Of a stretch of DNA of 29,524 nt, positions 1 through 12,475 are shown piece after piece; the first letter of the stretch is position 1; the number at the start of each line of letters is the position of its first letter. The notes under the pieces were generated by a model, which saw nothing but the letters and a program-made list of their open reading frames with translations, was not told where the DNA came from and did not search any database. The position numbers and the translations under genes were made by a program. The DNA comes from an uncultured Gammaproteobacteria bacterium (GTDB lineage Bacteria; Patescibacteriota; Microgenomatia; Curtissbacterales; GWA2-41-24), in contig CAYMGH010000003.1 in the NCBI GenBank assembly GCA_964389935.1, positions 1-29,524 on the forward strand, read 5' to 3'.

Positions 1-851
1 TTATCGGTATAGATAACTTCAATGATTATTATGACCCAAAAATCAAAAAGAAAAACTTAAAGCAAGCCTTAAAAAATAAAAAGTTTAAACTCTACCGCAA
101 AGATATTTTAAATTACGATAAATTGGAGCAGATTTTTAAAAAAGAAAAACCGCAAGAAATTGTTCACTTGGCAGCAAGGGCAGGAGTCAGGCCTTCCATA
201 GAAAACCCAATGGTATATGTAAATACCAATGTCCTTGGCACCGTTAATCTCCTAAAACTTGCTGTCGATTTTAAAGTTGGGCAGTTTATCTTTGGCTCTT
301 CATCATCAGTATACGGAAATTCCAAAAGATTGCCTTTTTCGGAAGAAGACCCTTGTGACAAGATAATTTCTCCATATGGCGCTTCCAAGAGAGCCGCAGA
401 ATTTTGGGTTGAAACTTTTTGGCGAGTATACGGTCTTAAATCAATAATCTTGAGATTTTTTACCGTCTACGGTCCGAGAGGAAGACCGGACATGGCTCCG
501 GCACTTTTTACGAAAGCAATTTTAGACAGAAAAACAATAAAACAGTTTGGAGATGGTTCGAGCAGCCGCGATTACACCTATATAGGTGATATAGTTGACG
601 GTATCGTCAAAGCTTTACAAAGAGATTCTAATTTCGAAATTTTTAATCTGGGAAACAATCATTCGGTGTTATTAGCCGATTTTATAACAAGTATTGAGAA
701 TGTAATCGGCAGGAAAGCAAAAATTAAAAAACTGCTAAAACAACCCGGAGATGTTGAAAAGACATGGGCAAATATAGAAAAAGCGGAAAGATTATTATCA
801 TGGAAACCGAAAGTTGGTATTAAACAGGGAATCTATAAATATCTCAAATAA
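1..851 (+). CDS. NAD-dependent epimerase, UDP-glucuronate 4-epimerase-like SDR (5' end outside the window)
   Basis: The frame is open from base 3 (IGIDNFNDYYDPKIKKKNL...), upstream of the ORF-track start at 123. Motifs HLAARAGVRPSIENP, YGASK (YxxxK) and RFFTVYGPRGRPDMA are typical of this subfamily. Confidence 0.85.
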   Translation, partial: IGIDNFNDYYDPKIKKKNLKQALKNKKFKLYRKDILNYDKLEQIFKKEKPQEIVHLAARAGVRPSIENPMVYVNTNVLGTVNLLKLAVDFKVGQFIFGSSSSVYGNSKRLPFSEEDPCDKIISPYGASKRAAEFWVETFWRVYGLKSIILRFFTVYGPRGRPDMAPALFTKAILDRKTIKQFGDGSSSRDYTYIGDIVDGIVKALQRDSNFEIFNLGNNHSVLLADFITSIENVIGRKAKIKKLLKQPGDVEKTWANIEKAERLLSWKPKVGIKQGIYKYLK

Positions 852-1612
852 TTTTTTGCCTTCTTAGATTTTTTACCAAATTCTTTGTCCAAACTTAAGA
901 TTAGTTTAGTAATTGGCGATTTGTAAAATTTGTTCAAAAAAATTGTATTTGGAATTACGCAGTGTCCACCGATTGGTCCATCTTTAAATTCAAGAATAGG
1001 CCTCACTACAGCAGGTTTTGATTCTTTATAGCTTTCATTATAGATTTGATTAAATTTTTTGTAGACATTATCAAAATTAATTTTCATATTTTTACAAATT
1101 TTAAAAGCCATTTTATTGAAAATAATATTCCAAGCATAGTAAGTGGTATCTAAAAGCTTAGCTACTTCAGATTCGAGTGAGCTATTAAATTCAAACGTCT
1201 TAATGCCTATTGTATTAAAATGTTTCCTCGCCAACTCTTTTGAATGTTTATTTACGGGTCCAATCACTTTTGTAAAATTTAAAATATCTCTTTTTAACTT
1301 TGGATGCTTTCCCATAACTGGTGAGTGAACTATGTTTTTGTTAGTATTGCCATAAATATTTTCGGTCGTCTTTGGCATGACAGTCGAATGTATAATTGTA
1401 AGGCTTGGGTTGTTGAGCCTAATTTGCCTAACTGCAACCTTTTCGAAATTTTTGGAATATGGAATACATACATGAAGAACATCAAGTCTCGTCCGTTTTA
1501 TTTCATCAAATTTTACGTCTTTTTTTAAAACAAGGTATTTCTTTTCAAGGATGCTTGAAATCGCACTCCCTACTTCTCCTATTCCCAAAACACCAATTAT
1601 AGATTTTTTCAT
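833..1612 (-). CDS. Short (259 aa) UDP-glucose/GDP-mannose dehydrogenase-family protein without the C-terminal UDP-binding domain
   Basis: Rossmann GIGEVG, VCIP, HSTVMPKTT, HSP, SEVAKLLDTTY (Lys152) and PIGGHCVIPN (Cys218). The protein ends about 40 aa after GGHC. Confidence 0.7.
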   Translation of the reverse strand: MKKSIIGVLGIGEVGSAISSILEKKYLVLKKDVKFDEIKRTRLDVLHVCIPYSKNFEKVAVRQIRLNNPSLTIIHSTVMPKTTENIYGNTNKNIVHSPVMGKHPKLKRDILNFTKVIGPVNKHSKELARKHFNTIGIKTFEFNSSLESEVAKLLDTTYYAWNIIFNKMAFKICKNMKINFDNVYKKFNQIYNESYKESKPAVVRPILEFKDGPIGGHCVIPNTIFLNKFYKSPITKLILSLDKEFGKKSKKAKNYLRYL

Positions 1613-1618
1613 GCCGAT

Positions 1619-1627
1619 ATTATATCA
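1619..1627 (-). promoter_or_regulatory. Extended -10 promoter (TGATATAAT) for the short dehydrogenase, probably leaderless
   Basis: Perfect TGn-TATAAT on the minus strand ending 6 nt before the ATG at 1612. Confidence 0.6.
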
Positions 1628-1635
1628 TCGGTAAC

Positions 1636-1641
1636 TATAAT
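1636..1641 (+). promoter_or_regulatory. -10 box (TATAAT) candidate for the 1680-8152 operon
   Basis: Perfect hexamer in the 67-bp divergent gap; no clear -35. Confidence 0.4.
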
Positions 1642-1679
1642 TACTGCTTTATATCAAAGTTTATTTAACAATCAATTCA

Positions 1680-2882
1680 ATGAAAAAAAGGACTATTTCT
1701 ATTGCTGATCTTAGGATATCAAAAAAAGCAAAAAGATATATTCTTCAGACGTTAAACGAAAACAGGTTATCTTACGGGAAATTTACTCAAAAGTTTGAAA
1801 CTCAATTTGCTAAACTTCACAATAGAAAGTATGCCATTGTATCAAATAGCGGCACAAGTGGACTTCAGGTTGCTATACACGCGCTAAAAGAGCAGTCGGG
1901 ATGGGATGATGGTGACGAGATTATCGTTCCTGCTATTACTTTTATTGCTTCATCAAACGCGATTATTCACAATAATCTAAGACCGGTGTTTGTAGATGTT
2001 GAATCAAATTATTACTGCATTGACCCAAAAAAAATAGAAGAGGAAATCACTAAAAAAACTAAGGCGATAATGCCCGTTCATCTTTTCGGCCAAAGTGCTG
2101 ATATGGACCCAATCATGAAAATTGCCAAAAAGTACAATTTAAAAGTAATTGAAGATTCATGCGAGGCAATGTTTATTAAATACAAAGGTGAACCGGTTGG
2201 ATCTATGGGTGACGTAGCCGTTTTTTCAACTTACGTTGCTCATATCATAGTAACCGGAGTGGGCGGCATAGTGACAACAAATGACGAATCACTTGCAACA
2301 ATTATTAAAAGTTTGATATTCCATGGAAGAGACAACATCTACCTCAAAATCGAAGATGATGATACGAGTGATAGAGTAAAGCTAAATTCTCTAATTGAAA
2401 GACGATTCCAGTTTCATCATGTTGGTTATTCCTATAGAATTACGGAGATGGAAGGCGCGCTTGGTTTGGCAGCGCTTCAAGAAAAAAATAAAATAATCAG
2501 AAAACGACAATGGGCCGGAAAAGAGATTACGAAATCACTTAAAATGTTCTCACAATTGTTTGAACTGCCAAAAACACGCAATGGTTCAGAACACATATAC
2601 ATGTTTTACCCAATTGTTATTAAAAATAACAGGATTGAGAAGGAAGATTTTCTTCTATTTTTAGAGGAAAATGGTGTAGAAACCCGTCTTTTTATGCCAC
2701 TTTTAAATCAGCCCATATATAAAAAAATTTTTGGAGACACAGAAAATGAATACCCGATTGCTAAACAACTTGTAGATAAGGGCTTCTTGATTGGCTGCCA
2801 TCAATACCTCAAAGAAGCTGATATAAAGTATTTAGGCAATTTGTTTAAAAGATATTTAAATGATGAAGGACTTTTGGCATAG
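1680..2882 (+). CDS. DegT/DnrJ-fold PLP enzyme with His at the Schiff-base Lys position; ColD/E1-type sugar 3-dehydratase-like
   Basis: SGTSGL, PVHLFGQ, IEDSCEAM and FSTYVAHIIVTGVGG (His188, codon CAT at 2241-2243, where aminotransferases have K). The later GRDNIY segment lacks the Cys cluster of E1. Confidence 0.75.
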   Translation: MKKRTISIADLRISKKAKRYILQTLNENRLSYGKFTQKFETQFAKLHNRKYAIVSNSGTSGLQVAIHALKEQSGWDDGDEIIVPAITFIASSNAIIHNNLRPVFVDVESNYYCIDPKKIEEEITKKTKAIMPVHLFGQSADMDPIMKIAKKYNLKVIEDSCEAMFIKYKGEPVGSMGDVAVFSTYVAHIIVTGVGGIVTTNDESLATIIKSLIFHGRDNIYLKIEDDDTSDRVKLNSLIERRFQFHHVGYSYRITEMEGALGLAALQEKNKIIRKRQWAGKEITKSLKMFSQLFELPKTRNGSEHIYMFYPIVIKNNRIEKEDFLLFLEENGVETRLFMPLLNQPIYKKIFGDTENEYPIAKQLVDKGFLIGCHQYLKEADIKYLGNLFKRYLNDEGLLA

Positions 2883-3825
2883 AAAACGAGTTTTAGTAAC
2901 TGGTGGGACAGGTTTTATCGGCTCATATGTAGCCGAAATTTTGCTGAAGAAAGGATCAGATGTTTCAGTAACAACATTGGACGACAACTTTGAAAACATT
3001 TCAGGGTTTAAAAAAGATCTAAAGATTTTACGGGCAAATTTAACGGATTTTAAAGATGCAAAAAGAGTAACTAAAAGTAAAGATGTAGTTTTAAACCTTG
3101 CTTCTAAAGTGGCCGGCATCCAGTACAATGTTAATCATCCTGTTGAAATGTTTGAAGATAACATATCTATTGCAAAAAACGTTATTAGCGCTGCCTATCA
3201 AAATAACGTAGGAAGGTTGCTGATAGTAAGCTCGGCGTGCGTTTATTCAAGTGATAGCAGGGTACCCAATATAGAGCAAGAAGGGTTTTTAGGTGATCCT
3301 GAGTCTACTAACTTAGGATATGGCTGGGCAAAAAGGGTTTCTGAACTCCTAGGCCGATTCTATTTTCAAGAGTATGGGTTTAAAATCGCAATCGCCCGCC
3401 CTTTTAATGCCTACGGACCTAGAGACAATTTTGATCCAAGATTTTCACACGTAATACCCGGAATCATCAAAAGAGTTTTCGATGGAGAAAATCCGTTAAT
3501 TGTCTGGGGCAGTGGAAAACAAACAAGATCGTTTATTTATGCCGAAGATTTTGCAAAAGGTCTTCTTAGAACTGTTGAAAAATATTGTGTTTCTGATCCC
3601 GTTAATATTGGTTCAAGTGAGGAGATCACTATAAAAGATTTGGCATATCTGATAGCAAGACTTTCAGGAAAAAAGCTTAAAATTAAGTTTGACAGGAGAA
3701 AACCTGACGGCCAGCCAAGAAGAATGGGTAGTGTCAAAAAAGCAAAAACTAAATTGGGATTCGAGTCCAAAACCTCTCTAAAGGAGGGTTTGGAAAGGAC
3801 AATAGAATGGTACAAACATCTTTAA
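2860..3825 (+). CDS. GDP-L-fucose synthase/ColC-like SDR epimerase-reductase
   Basis: TGGTGFIGS, NLASKVAGI, SSACVY (Cys), GYGWAK (YxxxK), PFNAYGPRDNFD..SHVIPGII (His), VWGSGKQTRSF, KPDGQPRR. Confidence 0.75.
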   Translation: MMKDFWHRKRVLVTGGTGFIGSYVAEILLKKGSDVSVTTLDDNFENISGFKKDLKILRANLTDFKDAKRVTKSKDVVLNLASKVAGIQYNVNHPVEMFEDNISIAKNVISAAYQNNVGRLLIVSSACVYSSDSRVPNIEQEGFLGDPESTNLGYGWAKRVSELLGRFYFQEYGFKIAIARPFNAYGPRDNFDPRFSHVIPGIIKRVFDGENPLIVWGSGKQTRSFIYAEDFAKGLLRTVEKYCVSDPVNIGSSEEITIKDLAYLIARLSGKKLKIKFDRRKPDGQPRRMGSVKKAKTKLGFESKTSLKEGLERTIEWYKHL

Positions 3826-4505
3826 TAATTTTAACAAGAAATGAAATAGAAGGATTAAAAGCCTTAATCAGAAAAATACCTTTTGAAACGGCAGATGAGT
3901 ACTTTGCTATAGATTATAAATCGACAGACGGAACTTTAGAGTTTTTTAAAAAACACCAGATAGAAATTGTGGCACAAAAAGAACCGGGCAGAGGAAAAGC
4001 ATTCGAACTTGGAGCCCTTAGAGCTAAAGGCAAGTACTTAGCGTTTTTCAGCCCTGATGGAAATGAAAATCCTGCCGATATTCCAAAGCTGATAACACTT
4101 CTTAAAAATGGTGCTGATTTGGCAATTGCTTCAAGATTTATGAAAGGCTCCAGAAATGAAGAAGATGATAAGGTTTTGAAACCGAGAGCATGGGCAAATA
4201 GAATGTTTAGCTTAGCAGTTAGAGTTTTTTGGGGTGGAAAAGTAACAGATTCGATTAATGGGTATAGAGCAATAAGAAAAGATGCTTTAAAAAAACTTCG
4301 TTTGGACGCTTCAGGTTTTGCGGTTGAATATCAGATGACGATTAGAGCATTGAAGCTTGGACTAAAGGTTTCTGAAATTCCAACCATCGAGGGAAACAGA
4401 ATCGGCGGACAAAGCACTTCTTATGCAATACCAACTGGATTAAAGTTTCTGGGATATTTACTCCGGGAAATTTTTATAGGCAAAAGTTTTCTTCATGGCA
4501 AATAA
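3807..4505 (+). CDS. GT2 glycosyltransferase, polyprenyl-phosphate (DPM synthase/ArnC-like) type
   Basis: 232 aa; IILTRNE, DYKSTDGT, SPDGNENP, IASRF, TDSINGYRAIR, EIPTIEGNRIGGQS. Confidence 0.75.
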   Translation: MVQTSLIILTRNEIEGLKALIRKIPFETADEYFAIDYKSTDGTLEFFKKHQIEIVAQKEPGRGKAFELGALRAKGKYLAFFSPDGNENPADIPKLITLLKNGADLAIASRFMKGSRNEEDDKVLKPRAWANRMFSLAVRVFWGGKVTDSINGYRAIRKDALKKLRLDASGFAVEYQMTIRALKLGLKVSEIPTIEGNRIGGQSTSYAIPTGLKFLGYLLREIFIGKSFLHGK

Positions 4506-6057
4506 GCCTCTGATTCTCGTTTTTGTCTGGTCTTTAATCTTTATCTTTTTCACAACACTGTGGATTGTTATCGATAATAAACCTCCTGCGCAGGATCAGG
4601 CATATTATTTAACTGGTGCCGAAAGTCTTTATCAAACTTTGAAAGATGAGGGCCTTCTGGGTTTTCTTTCTCAAACAACTACTGTCCTTGGACGCAAAGC
4701 TCCCCTAATTTCAATTAGTCCGATTCCCCTATACGCTATCTTTGGTCCATCACAAAAGATTGCTCTAAGTGTTAATATCATTTTTTTTGTACTTTTTGTT
4801 ATATTTTTCTATCTGCTAATCCGAAAATTGCACAACTCCTATATTGCTTTTTTAAGTATTCTAATTGTTTCAACAATGCCTATTTTTTACGGGCTCGTGA
4901 GAAATTTTTTTGTAGAATTCGGACTAATGACACTAGTAATTATGTGGCTGTACTTTCTCCTAAAGACTGATTCCCTTGCAAATAAAAAATATTTGGTATT
5001 TTTGGGCATTGTAAGCGGGCTTGGAATGTTAATGAAATTTCATTTTTTTATCTTCACCGCTTTGCCCTTTTTACTAAAGGGTTATCAAAATTTCAAAAAA
5101 TATAGAAATCCTAGAAAGATCGTCACAGCTATTTTGTTAGTTGGCTTCCCCGCCTTTATTGTCGCTGGACCGTGGTACTCCCAAAACATTCTGACTGTAC
5201 TCTGGCACGCAAAAAGAGCAACCGATCCGCAACTATTAGGCGATTACTACTATGGCAATCCTTTTACTATCGACGTGATTTCGAGATACTTTACTGATCT
5301 AATAAACTATGCGGTTTCACCGTATTATATAATCCTGTTTTTAATTTTTTCCTTAGCAGTTATTTTGACTAAGAAGAAAATTAAAATTCACGGAGCTCTA
5401 TTAAGTTACTTTTTTCTTCCTTTCATTGTTTTCTTTTTTGGTCCGAATAAAGACTATCGATTTATGCTACCTTTGGTCCCATTTTTAGGTTTTTTGATTG
5501 CCTATCTATTTACTAAGGTTTTGGGAAAAAGCTACAAGTTAGCATTTATTTCTGTGGCTTTTCCAATTTTAGTCTTTGTTAATAGCTCTGTAGCAAATAA
5601 CTTTGTTTTAAAAGAAAAAATTTCATTAGGCCCACTTCTATTTTATGGAAGTCGAGTCGGTTATGCAGAGAAACCAGAGTCTGATTACTTTCCAAACGAG
5701 CAAGTTATTAACACAATTAAAAGAGAGTCTTTTAAAGCACCGTCAATACTTATTAGCGCGTCTGAAGATAGATATCTCAATATAAATAATTTGCAATACT
5801 ACAATATTAAAAACGGCTCACCTTTTGAAATAAAAACTGTCTCTTATCTTAAAGATGTAGAAATCGACGACGTAACGATGATGGTTAATATGGGAGATTT
5901 TTTGGTAATGAGGGTAGGAGTAACAGATAGACCTAAAGACATTAATATATATAATGAGTCAATTTTAATGAGTTTGGATAAAAGTGTATGGTCATTAATC
6001 TCATCAGATATTACCTTTCCAGATGGTGGAAGAGTCTTGATATTTAAAAAATCATGA
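4495..6057 (+). CDS. Multi-pass membrane GT-C-fold (ArnT/PMT-like) glycosyltransferase
   Basis: 520 aa with many hydrophobic segments; PPAQDQAYYL after the first TM; FFVEFGL, GLGMLMKF, PWY and KDYRFMLP motifs; soluble C-terminal tail. Confidence 0.7.
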   Translation: MANKPLILVFVWSLIFIFFTTLWIVIDNKPPAQDQAYYLTGAESLYQTLKDEGLLGFLSQTTTVLGRKAPLISISPIPLYAIFGPSQKIALSVNIIFFVLFVIFFYLLIRKLHNSYIAFLSILIVSTMPIFYGLVRNFFVEFGLMTLVIMWLYFLLKTDSLANKKYLVFLGIVSGLGMLMKFHFFIFTALPFLLKGYQNFKKYRNPRKIVTAILLVGFPAFIVAGPWYSQNILTVLWHAKRATDPQLLGDYYYGNPFTIDVISRYFTDLINYAVSPYYIILFLIFSLAVILTKKKIKIHGALLSYFFLPFIVFFFGPNKDYRFMLPLVPFLGFLIAYLFTKVLGKSYKLAFISVAFPILVFVNSSVANNFVLKEKISLGPLLFYGSRVGYAEKPESDYFPNEQVINTIKRESFKAPSILISASEDRYLNINNLQYYNIKNGSPFEIKTVSYLKDVEIDDVTMMVNMGDFLVMRVGVTDRPKDINIYNESILMSLDKSVWSLISSDITFPDGGRVLIFKKS

Positions 6058-10961: not shown

Positions 10962-11523
10962 TTTGCTTCACCTTTAAATAATCCATACGCGAGTTACTAG
11001 AGACTTGTTCATCATCTTGACTGTTGCCAATCATTATAAAATCTCCATCTTGAAAGTCTGTATAGTGAGATCGAATAATAGCCATACCATCGACATTCGG
11101 TTTCAATTTCCTGACACTTTCTAATGAAACAATCAAATCGAAGTAATTTAAGAGTTTAATTTCCGACAATATTTTGGTTATTAAGGGCTTTGAGTTAGAC
11201 GAATATATAACATACATTTTACTAGGGTTTTTAGTTATAAAGTCGATCAAATTTTTATTTGCCGAGTATTTTATTAAATTATTTAATTCCAGAGTTGCTA
11301 ACAATTTATCTAGAGTTTTGGTCTTTGAATTGGTATCACTTTTATAAGCATTTATAGCCTCTTTTAGCGATTTATGTTTTTTACCACCCAAGATTTTATA
11401 TTCCGAAAAAAAACTATTTTTTAGATTTAGCCAATCTATTTCAAGGTTTATCAGTGTCCCGTCAAAATCTAATACGATAACTTTTTTCCTTCTTAATTTC
11501 TTGTCAATATAACGTTTACTCAT
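10951..11523 (-). CDS. HAD-superfamily hydrolase/phosphatase
   Basis: Motif I DFDGTL, motif II SSN, motif III KP, degenerate motif IV IGNSQDDE. Confidence 0.8.
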   Translation of the reverse strand: MSKRYIDKKLRRKKVIVLDFDGTLINLEIDWLNLKNSFFSEYKILGGKKHKSLKEAINAYKSDTNSKTKTLDKLLATLELNNLIKYSANKNLIDFITKNPSKMYVIYSSNSKPLITKILSEIKLLNYFDLIVSLESVRKLKPNVDGMAIIRSHYTDFQDGDFIMIGNSQDDEQVSSNSRMDYLKVKQSEN

Positions 11524-12475
11524 TAAAGTAGACTTCTTCCCAATAACGAGACATGACTGTTCCGTTTTTGGGAGTTAATTCTTTTTTGGAAATTTTCATG
11601 CCTAGATCTATTTTTAAATAAAGTAGAGGAATATTGACTCCGTTTTCAAAAGTTAATATGGAACCAGCACCAAATTTTGGGTTTATCTCGACAAGATAAA
11701 TTTCATCTCTTTCTTTCAAAATTTGTATGTTTGCTGGCCCGTTAAGTTTAAAAATTCTGCTTAAACGTTTTGCATAGTTAATTATTTTTGGGTCACTCAC
11801 GATTTGTCCCTGGAAAGACTGTCCATTTTTAACCCTTAATCTGAGTCTTGGAACTGCGGTTACGAATTGGTCTTTTTCGGTGTTCAAAACGTCTATAGTA
11901 AATTCCTGAGCCTTGATGTATCGTTGAATGATTGGATTTTGAACTTTTCTGAAGAAAAACTTTAATTCTTTATAGCTATCTAATCTCCATACGTCTGCTG
12001 TACCGGAACCAACGGATGGTTTGATTATTAGTGGAAAGTCATTCTTTTTTACATCCCTTATATCGAAAAAAGTTTTTGGATAACTTACTTCTTCTTTTAA
12101 GCATATGTCAATCATCTTCTTTTTATTGATGACATTTAATAAAGAAGAATATTTGCATATAAAAATTTTTACCCCTTTTTGTTTAAATAAATTTTCGTTT
12201 TTGGATAAAATTCTCAAACCTTCATTTAAAACAGGAGGGAAAATATATTGAATATTATTTTTGATGCAGTAATTGAAAAGGAATTCTATGAAATTTTTAT
12301 TACTGAATTTAGGTACTATTAATTTTTCATCTGTCAAACCGAAACCTGAAGAATAATTATCACTATCGGCGGCGATTATATGAACCGGTATTTCTTTTTG
12401 GCTCGCCAGTGATTTAATAACGCCTATAGATGGACTGGAACCTGCTGTTAATACTAAGATTTTTATTTTTTTCAC
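11516..12475 (-). CDS. ATP-grasp protein (short carbamoyl-phosphate-synthase-like form found in glycan loci)
   Basis: IIKPSVGSGT, IQRYIKAQEFTIDVL, GPANIQ, VEINPKFGAG; GTG start. Confidence 0.8.
   Translation of the reverse strand: MKKIKILVLTAGSSPSIGVIKSLASQKEIPVHIIAADSDNYSSGFGLTDEKLIVPKFSNKNFIEFLFNYCIKNNIQYIFPPVLNEGLRILSKNENLFKQKGVKIFICKYSSLLNVINKKKMIDICLKEEVSYPKTFFDIRDVKKNDFPLIIKPSVGSGTADVWRLDSYKELKFFFRKVQNPIIQRYIKAQEFTIDVLNTEKDQFVTAVPRLRLRVKNGQSFQGQIVSDPKIINYAKRLSRIFKLNGPANIQILKERDEIYLVEINPKFGAGSILTFENGVNIPLLYLKIDLGMKISKKELTPKNGTVMSRYWEEVYFNE

Follow-up and report, generated by a model that had tools for sequence, protein, structure and literature searches.

The minus-strand gene at positions 833 to 1612 of contig CAYMGH010000003.1, a 29,524-nucleotide stretch (the window) from an uncultured bacterium of the Patescibacteriota class Microgenomatia, is an intact member of a large family of short proteins and not a broken enzyme. 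Its 259-amino-acid (aa) product, referred to here as the mini-dehydrogenase, is, as judged from its sequence, composed of the N-terminal and central domains of a nucleotide-sugar dehydrogenase with a shortened Rossmann part. It ends at a domain boundary, is modelled with a confident fold, shares strongly conserved residues with its relatives, and lies, as they do, among genes for surface glycans. The best explanation is that the superfamily of UDP-glucose/GDP-mannose dehydrogenases has a large and ancient two-domain branch, to which this protein belongs. With a probability of about 0.5, the mini-dehydrogenase is proposed to be an NAD-dependent and Cys-dependent sugar dehydrogenase feeding a surface-glycan pathway, where the use of NAD, the covalent-Cys mechanism, the substrate, and the product are all putative.

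A family of conserved length

The window is the whole of contig C3 in a source genome of 933 kb that is 88.8% complete. All motifs that had been read from the 259-aa open reading frame (ORF) in the earlier note, namely GxGxxG, STV.P.TT, Lys152, and the Cys218 of GGHC, are present in both translation and DNA. The stop codon (833-835) lies inside the 3′ end of a convergent short-chain dehydrogenase/reductase (SDR) gene, which it overlaps by 19 bp, so that a frameshifted continuation is impossible; the note, too, had seen none. The last ~12 residues, overlapping the convergent gene, are unconserved and have low pLDDT, and only the final 9 are disordered in the predicted model.

A word-indexed search returned 554 relatives, the closest of them 60% identical; the best 120 of the 554 are 207-282 aa long, and 118 of these 120 fall between 230 and 275 aa. 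An exhaustive phmmer search without a length filter over 1.84 billion cluster representatives (50% identity) gave 1230 matching clusters at E<=1e-3, 901 at <=1e-10, and 207 at <=1e-30, with 131 of the best 150 clusters measuring 200-310 aa. Ten longer representatives were covered by a domain scan (six others, of 311-334 aa, stood outside it), and none of the ten carries PF03720, the C-terminal UDP/GDP-binding domain. Their additional length comes from C-terminal fusion to an HTH-HNH homing endonuclease in four cases (P0147, P0153, P0201, and P0229; 450-475 aa), a LAGLIDADG intein in one (P0176, 657 aa), a hexapeptide acetyltransferase fusion in another (P0264, 374 aa), and unassigned (N-terminal) extensions in the remainder. 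Likewise, among 34 aligned members, PF00984 was detected in 30 (E<=0.01), PF03721 in 13, and PF03720 in none.

PF03720 occurs once in the source genome, inside a separate 434-aa UDP-glucose 6-dehydrogenase (UGDH) on contig C46, and a hidden Markov model (HMM) of the C-terminal domain found no stand-alone copy among the 2178 ORFs of 160 related loci, where the sole matches were three full-length UGDHs. A split gene with a separately encoded C-terminal domain is ruled out for the source genome and for these loci, and the suggestion that the protein may need a partner subunit is not established, there being no separate C-domain gene in the genome or near the 160 loci. The closest homologues, which would have been full length had this copy been recently truncated, are short. 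In fact, close and distant homologues share this length, the alignment to full-length enzymes stops at the domain border, and the predicted model is a confident, self-contained two-domain structure, in agreement with the note's reading of a stand-alone short form; the length distribution and the ending at the domain border rule out a truncation or pseudogene.

Several relatives show peculiarities of their own. Two otherwise strong family matches (G215:C2:98526-99260 and G288:C42:10562-11302) have one in-frame stop each (TAA and TGA), and may represent pseudogenes, sequencing errors, or recoding. The fusions and the intein are signs of mobile-element traffic through the mini-dehydrogenase gene in phage-like DNA, and the acetyltransferase (LbH) fusion of P0264 hints at a pathway with an amino-sugar N-acetylation step.

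Placement in the superfamily

With the single sequence as query, both Pfam matches remained below threshold (PF00984, 20.3 bits with a cut-off of 25.4; PF03721, 13 bits). No curated model scored above its cut-off: TIGR03026 reached 45.8 bits (E=3.6e-12; cut-off 189.8), and the NCBIfam WecC equivalog models 15-21 bits versus cut-offs of 459-750. A profile built from the family was more informative when compared with the PDB, where it matched the Pyrococcus horikoshii UDP-N-acetylmannosamine (UDP-ManNAc) dehydrogenase 4r16 at 2.8e-14, followed by Klebsiella UGDH, Cap5O, an archaeal dehydrogenase of a nucleoside diphosphate (NDP)-linked N-acetylgalactosaminuronate (NDP-GalNAcA), and Cj1441; its only non-dehydrogenase match was one KtrA Rossmann domain. 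In hhalign comparisons with four full-length UGDHs, one of them from the source genome, residues 7-249 of the mini-dehydrogenase aligned with residues 1-290 at a probability of 98.5%, stopping exactly where the C-terminal domain starts.

Structure prediction is consistent with this placement. AlphaFold2, supplied with the family alignment, gave a model with pLDDT 93.4 and pTM 0.89, and the top Foldseek matches in the PDB were the UDP-sugar dehydrogenases 3ojl, 4r16, 3phl, and 7kws (E~1e-12; query TM-score, TMq, 0.75-0.77), with two-domain beta-hydroxyacid dehydrogenases ranked below them. The N-terminal Rossmann NAD-binding domain with its GxGxxG loop is aligned over its whole extent by both hhalign and Foldseek, at ~145 aa versus ~190 in canonical enzymes (~45 shorter), and the central helical domain (PF00984) is present with the Cys of the GGxC loop and the Lys of the long helix; the C-terminal domain is missing, the protein stopping at its border. 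In PHROGs, only the full-length UGDH phrog was matched (1.4e-12), and sequence, profile, and fold searches of the PDB brought up no solved structure from the short family.

Conserved and replaced active-site residues

Conservation, counted over 126 diverse relatives taken from 50% clusters, goes beyond what chance would give: no member departs from Lys152 or Cys218 (126/126), G10, G12, and G15 of GxGxxG are retained in 124-125, and many further positions are above 90%. Asp32 occurs in 114, with Glu in seven more, and its location at the end of beta-2 suggests a preference for NAD over NADP. Ser76 (121) and Thr77 (112) of the STV strand are also maintained, as are Glu149 (123, in mini-dehydrogenase numbering) and His217 (121).

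According to textbook mechanism, the C-terminal domain of these enzymes binds UDP or GDP, and a Glu/Asp pair hydrolyses the thioester. The short family has preserved the nucleophilic Cys, the Lys, and the STV Thr; it lacks the canonical Glu of P-E-F/R, the second Glu, the Lys+4 Asn, and the Cys+4 Asp, with Glu, Asn, and Asp replaced consistently. The hhalign columns pair Pro98, Lys152, and Cys218 with Pro148, Lys202, and Cys258 of the genome's own UGDH, and Val99, His103, Thr156, and Asn222 with its Glu149, Glu153, Asn206, and Asp262, respectively. These substituents are themselves conserved: Val/Ile99 in 114 of the 126, His103 in 124, Thr156 in 119, and Asn222 in 120 (Asp there in three). The replacement of the ER and EN motifs had been recognised in the earlier note, and is seen in HMMER and hhalign alignments as 'PER/PEF' to 'PVM' and 'K...N' to 'K...T'.

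Additional residues are characteristic of the family, including His96 (106/126), Tyr191 (118), Asn192 (116), Tyr195 (107), Arg204 (117), and Pro205 (121). The loop Y191-N-x-G-Y...R204-P205, located ahead of the catalytic loop, exceeds its full-length counterpart by ~10 residues in the hhalign alignment and is a candidate replacement substrate-binding element. The intein of P0176 sits exactly before the catalytic Cys (GGH/C...HN/C, with slashes at the intein borders), which serves as the +1 splice residue, a position that fits an important and conserved Cys site.

Taxonomic distribution and co-occurrence with full-length enzymes

A scan of a genome collection identified at least 559 loci, in candidate phyla radiation (CPR) bacteria of Microgenomates and Parcubacteria type, metagenome-assembled genomes labelled Saccharibacteria, Woesearchaeota, Nanoarchaeota, and Bathyarchaeia. 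IMG/VR contributed 174 loci, many of them in a true phage context (gp32-like ssDNA-binding protein, helicase) inside sugar cassettes, and neighbours in a protein atlas are 'hypothetical' clusters of 223-258 aa, mostly labelled viral. The names given to relatives at source are 'hypothetical protein', 'EsV-1-83', and the COG-derived 'UDP-N-acetyl-D-mannosaminuronate dehydrogenase'; full-text searches of the literature brought up no paper about either the short family or 'EsV-1-83'. A tblastn search of 50,697 phage genomes yielded only a weak match to a full-length Staphylococcus gene.

Within the window's class, distribution is patchy, with strong matches in 13 of 301 sampled genomes. PF03720 was detected in 177 of the 301 (59%) versus 11 of the 13 carriers of a mini-dehydrogenase. 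The two carriers in which no PF03720 protein was detected are G017 (99% complete), whose mini-dehydrogenase has no informative neighbours, and G037 (87% complete), which has a window-like gene layout. The full-length UGDH of the source genome (L001:550-1851, contig C46) scores 476 bits as TuaD-like and 443.8 bits with TIGR03026, and its block (L001, L162, and L163) encodes an RmlD-like protein (cut), the UGDH, an SDR, and a GDP-mannose 4,6-dehydratase (433.6 bits). Replacement of a missing UGDH is ruled out by the full-length copy here and in the 11 carrier genomes; as an accessory gene, the short form occurs alongside full-length members of the family without substituting for them.

A second group of ORFs from the same class (G031, G209, G249, G110, G126, and G042), mostly ~273-291 aa with one of 369 aa, matches the mini-dehydrogenase profile at positions ~4-185 only (60-68 bits), and may be another short family with a Rossmann and central-helix arrangement.

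Gene neighbourhoods of the family

The profile search and neighbourhood comparison proposed in the note gave same-length homologues in glycan-gene settings. Neighbourhoods were examined at 77 genome loci and 77 viral loci, and the family was always found in surface-glycan gene settings of CPR, DPANN, and phage contigs. Companions at the 77 genome loci include SDRs (50), glycosyltransferases, Wzx (34), Wzy_C-TPR (25), UDP-N-acetylglucosamine (UDP-GlcNAc) 2-epimerase (17), and a 160-aa cytidylyltransferase-like protein (14); across genome and viral loci together, the neighbours are SDR nucleotide-sugar enzymes, Wzx, Wzy_C, glycosyltransferases, UDP-GlcNAc 2-epimerase, and DegT enzymes.

The 116 neighbouring SDRs were sub-clustered, and representatives were identified against the PDB. 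The largest subtype, with 36 members, resembles UDP-glucuronate (UDP-GlcA) 4-epimerases and is directly adjacent to the mini-dehydrogenase in nine cases, followed by GDP-mannose 4,6-dehydratases (19 members, four adjacent) and GDP-fucose-synthase-like proteins (14 members, three adjacent). All 13 members of a UDP-xylose synthase (UXS)-like subtype, each of them viral, and all six GDP-mannose 3,5-epimerases are adjacent. The subtype of the convergent SDR in the window lies at most two genes from a mini-dehydrogenase in 15 related loci and in G037.

The view that the substrate is not attached to UDP is not established, the neighbours being ordinary nucleotide-sugar enzymes that point toward an NDP-sugar. 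The idea of a GDP-linked sugar gained some contextual support from the GDP-mannose 4,6-dehydratases and 3,5-epimerases.

In one phage lineage, represented by L089-L116-type viral loci (e.g., L116:6001-9000), the mini-dehydrogenase is flanked by UXS-like and GDP-mannose-3,5-epimerase SDRs, and a conserved series of genes comes after it, consisting of DUF366 and four short ORFs of 112-166 aa that match no Pfam family.

Genes and features in the window

The window is a 29.5-kb glycan-biosynthesis island (Table 1). In phmmer searches of the PDB, the convergent SDR matched 5u4q at 215 bits and the Bacillus cereus UDP-GlcA 4-epimerase (6zl6/6zla) at 166 bits. In the divergent module, the DegT-fold protein, best matched by the RfbH model (242 bits), has His at the position of the pyridoxal phosphate-binding Lys (FSTYVAHIIVTGVGG in translation), the SDR is GDP-fucose-synthase-like at 204 bits, and the family 2 glycosyltransferase (GT2) is of the polyprenyl-phosphate glycosyltransferase type, giving an Arn-like layout. 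Because the genome encodes a GDP-mannose 4,6-dehydratase on contig C46, this module may make a colitose-like 3,6-dideoxyhexose, and its composition suggests delivery on a polyprenyl-phosphate carrier. The six-gene layout, including the mini-dehydrogenase, recurs in L002, L004, and G037 (contig C74).

Table 1. Coordinates of the mini-dehydrogenase gene, its motifs, and adjacent features in the window
Feature	Position	Strand	Description
Convergent SDR gene, cut by contig end	3..851	plus	Product closest to UDP-glucuronate 4-epimerases (PDB phmmer)
Mini-dehydrogenase coding sequence	833..1612	minus	Complete, 259 aa, ATG start (ORF list)
GGHCVIPN, residues 215-222	947..970	minus	Cys218 in WecC/Cap5O-like GGHC; read from reverse complement
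Y191-N192-x-(G)-Y195 ... R204-P205 loop	998..1042	minus	Family-specific, conserved
KLLDT, residues 152-156	1145..1159	minus	Long central helix; Lys152 kept, canonical Asn at K+4 replaced by Thr156
HSPVMGKHP, residues 96-104	1301..1327	minus	Takes the place of the H-x-P-E-R / N-P-E-F-L-x-E-G sugar-binding and catalytic-Glu loop
STVMPKTT, residues 76-83	1364..1387	minus	Counterpart of the UGDH strand-loop ESTVPPGTT, its conserved Thr included, by HMMER alignment with 3ojl and 4r16
GIGEVG, residues 10-15	1568..1585	minus	Rossmann dinucleotide-binding loop
Divergent intergenic region	1613..1679		67 bp, AT-rich; between mini-dehydrogenase and ColD/RfbH-like genes
Divergent four-gene module	1680..6057	plus	DegT-fold RfbH/ColD-like protein, GDP-fucose-synthase-like SDR, GT2, PMT_2/ArnT-like GT-C glycosyltransferase (Pfam and NCBIfam)

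Promoters for both divergent genes presumably lie in the intergenic region. The 'own strong promoter' ascribed to the mini-dehydrogenase gene in the note was not recovered: a sigma-70 scan of 1613-1679 found no minus-strand site, the whole region has fewer sites than its shuffles, and, in this very AT-rich DNA, inspection by eye picked out nothing beyond a weak TTGATT-16-TATAAA and a TATAAT located 5 nt upstream of the ATG.

Elsewhere in the island, an ATP-grasp 'carbamoyl-phosphate-synthase-like' protein (11516-12475, minus strand; PRK12767 models, 184 bits), flanked by an unassigned 190-aa ORF and an SDR, could join a sugar acid to an amino acid or an amine.

Comparison with characterized enzymes

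The mini-dehydrogenase belongs to a known superfamily, in which it represents a conserved, uncharacterised minimal architecture with an altered catalytic set. To our knowledge, every characterised nucleotide-sugar 6-dehydrogenase has three domains. The UDP-ManNAc dehydrogenases, namely WecC/Cap5O (3ojl/3ojo) and P. horikoshii 4r16, are the best matches in both sequence and fold; they share with the mini-dehydrogenase the GGHC motif, the ESTV-P-TT strand, the central-helix Lys, and a sugar loop beginning with His-x-Pro, and UDP-GlcNAc 2-epimerase, which makes their substrate, is encoded nearby at several phage loci in addition to the 17 genome loci. In contrast to the mini-dehydrogenase, they are 418-431 aa long with PF03720 and an N-terminal domain ~45 aa longer, are only 17-18% identical to it, and show Glu-Arg and Asn in the alignments at the places of Val-Met and Thr, respectively, in the short family. 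They also carry Asp at Cys+4, versus Asn in the short family.

The UGDHs (Ugd/HasB/TuaD), represented by Klebsiella 3phl/3plr, Campylobacter jejuni Cj1441 (7kws), and human 2q3e, share the N-terminal and central fold (TMq ~0.75), with Lys and Cys at equivalent positions and a contextual link through enzymes that use UDP-GlcA, but the mini-dehydrogenase lacks their C-terminal domain and has GGHC in place of GGSC. AlgD (1mfz) is a member of the same superfamily, and genes for GDP-mannose 4,6-dehydratase and 3,5-epimerase adjoin mini-dehydrogenase genes in several loci; however, AlgD is a three-domain protein of 436 aa with a weaker fold match (TMq 0.59) and no specific shared signature. The beta-hydroxyacid dehydrogenases (HIBADH and glyoxylate/tartronate-semialdehyde reductases; 2gf2, 5je8, and 8z0x) resemble the mini-dehydrogenase in combining a Rossmann domain with an all-helical 6PGDH-C-like domain in ~290 aa and in the catalytic Lys on a long helix (Foldseek E~1e-10), whereas they have no catalytic Cys or GGxC loop and superpose with TM-scores of 0.59-0.70 and a high root-mean-square deviation.

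Proteins of Campylobacter phage F379 (256 aa) and Microbacterium phage Fireman (262 aa), known from BFVD models, are similar in length and two-domain fold (TMq 0.64-0.67; E 1e-9 to 1e-11). They are 15-18% identical to the mini-dehydrogenase, were missed by tblastn, are named by similarity only, and are probably separate short branches.

Proposed function and alternatives

As a sugar dehydrogenase, the mini-dehydrogenase would use NAD+ to oxidise the primary (C6) alcohol of a sugar, probably an NDP-hexose, by way of a thiohemiacetal and thioester on Cys218, with Lys152 as the catalytic base. The product would be a uronic-acid-type precursor for a cell-surface glycan, and the most plausible partner or consumer in the window would be the convergent UDP-glucuronate-4-epimerase-like enzyme. 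The family-specific residues His96, His103, Tyr191, Asn192, Tyr195, and Arg204 would hold the substrate, and the central helical domain, which forms the dimer interface in full-length enzymes, would bear the catalytic Cys.

Several observations weigh against this proposal. The UDP-binding domain of every characterised member is absent, with no replacement in cis or nearby; three of six canonical active-site residues differ family-wide (Glu to Val/Ile99, Asn to Thr156, and Asp to Asn222); and the genome already encodes a normal UGDH, so that the short form is no simple replacement. For these reasons, the probability is kept near one half. The human UGDH variant Glu161Gln, altered at the Glu for which the short family has Val/Ile, was crystallised with a trapped reaction intermediate (title of PDB 3khu), and, since canonical residues are replaced here, the full four-electron oxidation with hydrolysis may not occur in the usual way. 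In addition, in a FastTree phylogeny of 156 family members labelled by neighbour, neighbour type was weakly clustered (47 changes versus 62 in shuffles, with a minimum possible of 10); this loose tie to phylogeny means that context singles out no one substrate. Assignment of substrate from neighbour type on this tree was rejected, as no clean specificity clades emerged; a small clade beside that of the window is consistently linked to the epimerase-like SDR. Literature searches found no biochemical data on the short family.

A tentative alternative, possible and less probable than the sugar dehydrogenase proposed above, is that the short family is a distinct enzyme class in which the same fold serves another job. 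Its Cys-Lys-NAD core would act on a sugar not gripped by a nucleotide (linked to polyprenyl phosphate or another lipid, glycan-bound, phosphorylated, or free), or its chemistry would be altered: the reaction may stop at the aldehyde or thiohemiacetal, resolve the thioester by transfer to an amine (aminolysis to a uronamide), release the aldehyde for transamination, or run in the reductive direction. The lost UDP-binding domain, the change of the hydrolytic and acid-base Glu, Asn, and Asp to Val/Ile, Thr, and Asn, the appearance of invariant His, Tyr, and Arg residues, and the normal UGDH in the same genome are all consistent with such a role, as are the position of the window copy beside a lipid-carrier module of GT2 and GT-C (ArnC/ArnT-like) enzymes and the presence of DegT-type enzymes within two genes at nine of 156 loci. 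However, a strictly invariant Cys is hard to account for in a two-electron enzyme, the great majority of the neighbours are soluble enzymes of NDP-sugars, and the confident model has no membrane segment or lipid-binding feature.

It is unlikely that the protein is a minimal UDP-glucose 6-dehydrogenase, redundant with the full-length Ugd and dedicated to the cluster, that makes UDP-GlcA for the adjacent 4-epimerase. The UDP-GlcA 4-epimerase-like convergent neighbour would fit such an enzyme, as would the UXS-like SDR immediately adjacent in 13 of the 13 viral loci that carry this subtype, the G037 genome with the same layout and no PF03720 protein detected at 87% completeness, and a module composition that parallels Ugd plus Arn. 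Conversely, the genome has its own TuaD-like UGDH on contig C46, with an SDR and a GDP-mannose 4,6-dehydratase after it, the sugar-contacting Glu/Glu/Asn/Asp set is replaced, many loci carry GDP-mannose enzymes or UDP-GlcNAc 2-epimerase instead, and GGHC resembles WecC/Cap5O rather than Ugd. Very little credence is given to a non-catalytic or regulatory subunit that heterodimerises through the central (dimerisation) domain with a full-length UGDH or another enzyme: this domain is retained and a full-length family member co-occurs in 11 of 13 carrier genomes, but the invariant Cys and Lys and the GxGxxG loop speak for catalysis, and no full-length partner was detected on the phage contigs or in the 99% complete G017. 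Next to none is left for a recent truncation or pseudogene of a full-length dehydrogenase, to which the short length alone would point; the lengths found across the family already refute it, and the overlap of the stop with the convergent gene, the ending at a domain boundary, the strong conservation, and the confident fold speak against it as well.

Implications

More than 1000 sequence clusters have neither the nucleotide-binding domain nor the Glu/Asp pair, yet conserve the Cys, the Lys, and the NAD loop, and they occur in phage sugar-modification cassettes and in glycan clusters of CPR and DPANN organisms, about whose surfaces almost nothing is known. If the family makes uronic acids, as proposed for the mini-dehydrogenase, it would define the minimal catalytic unit of this enzyme class, and annotations as 'hypothetical protein' or 'fragment' in thousands of genomes would be corrected. 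If it does something else, the family would represent a new step in glycan biosynthesis that is widespread in CPR bacteria, DPANN archaea, and phages.

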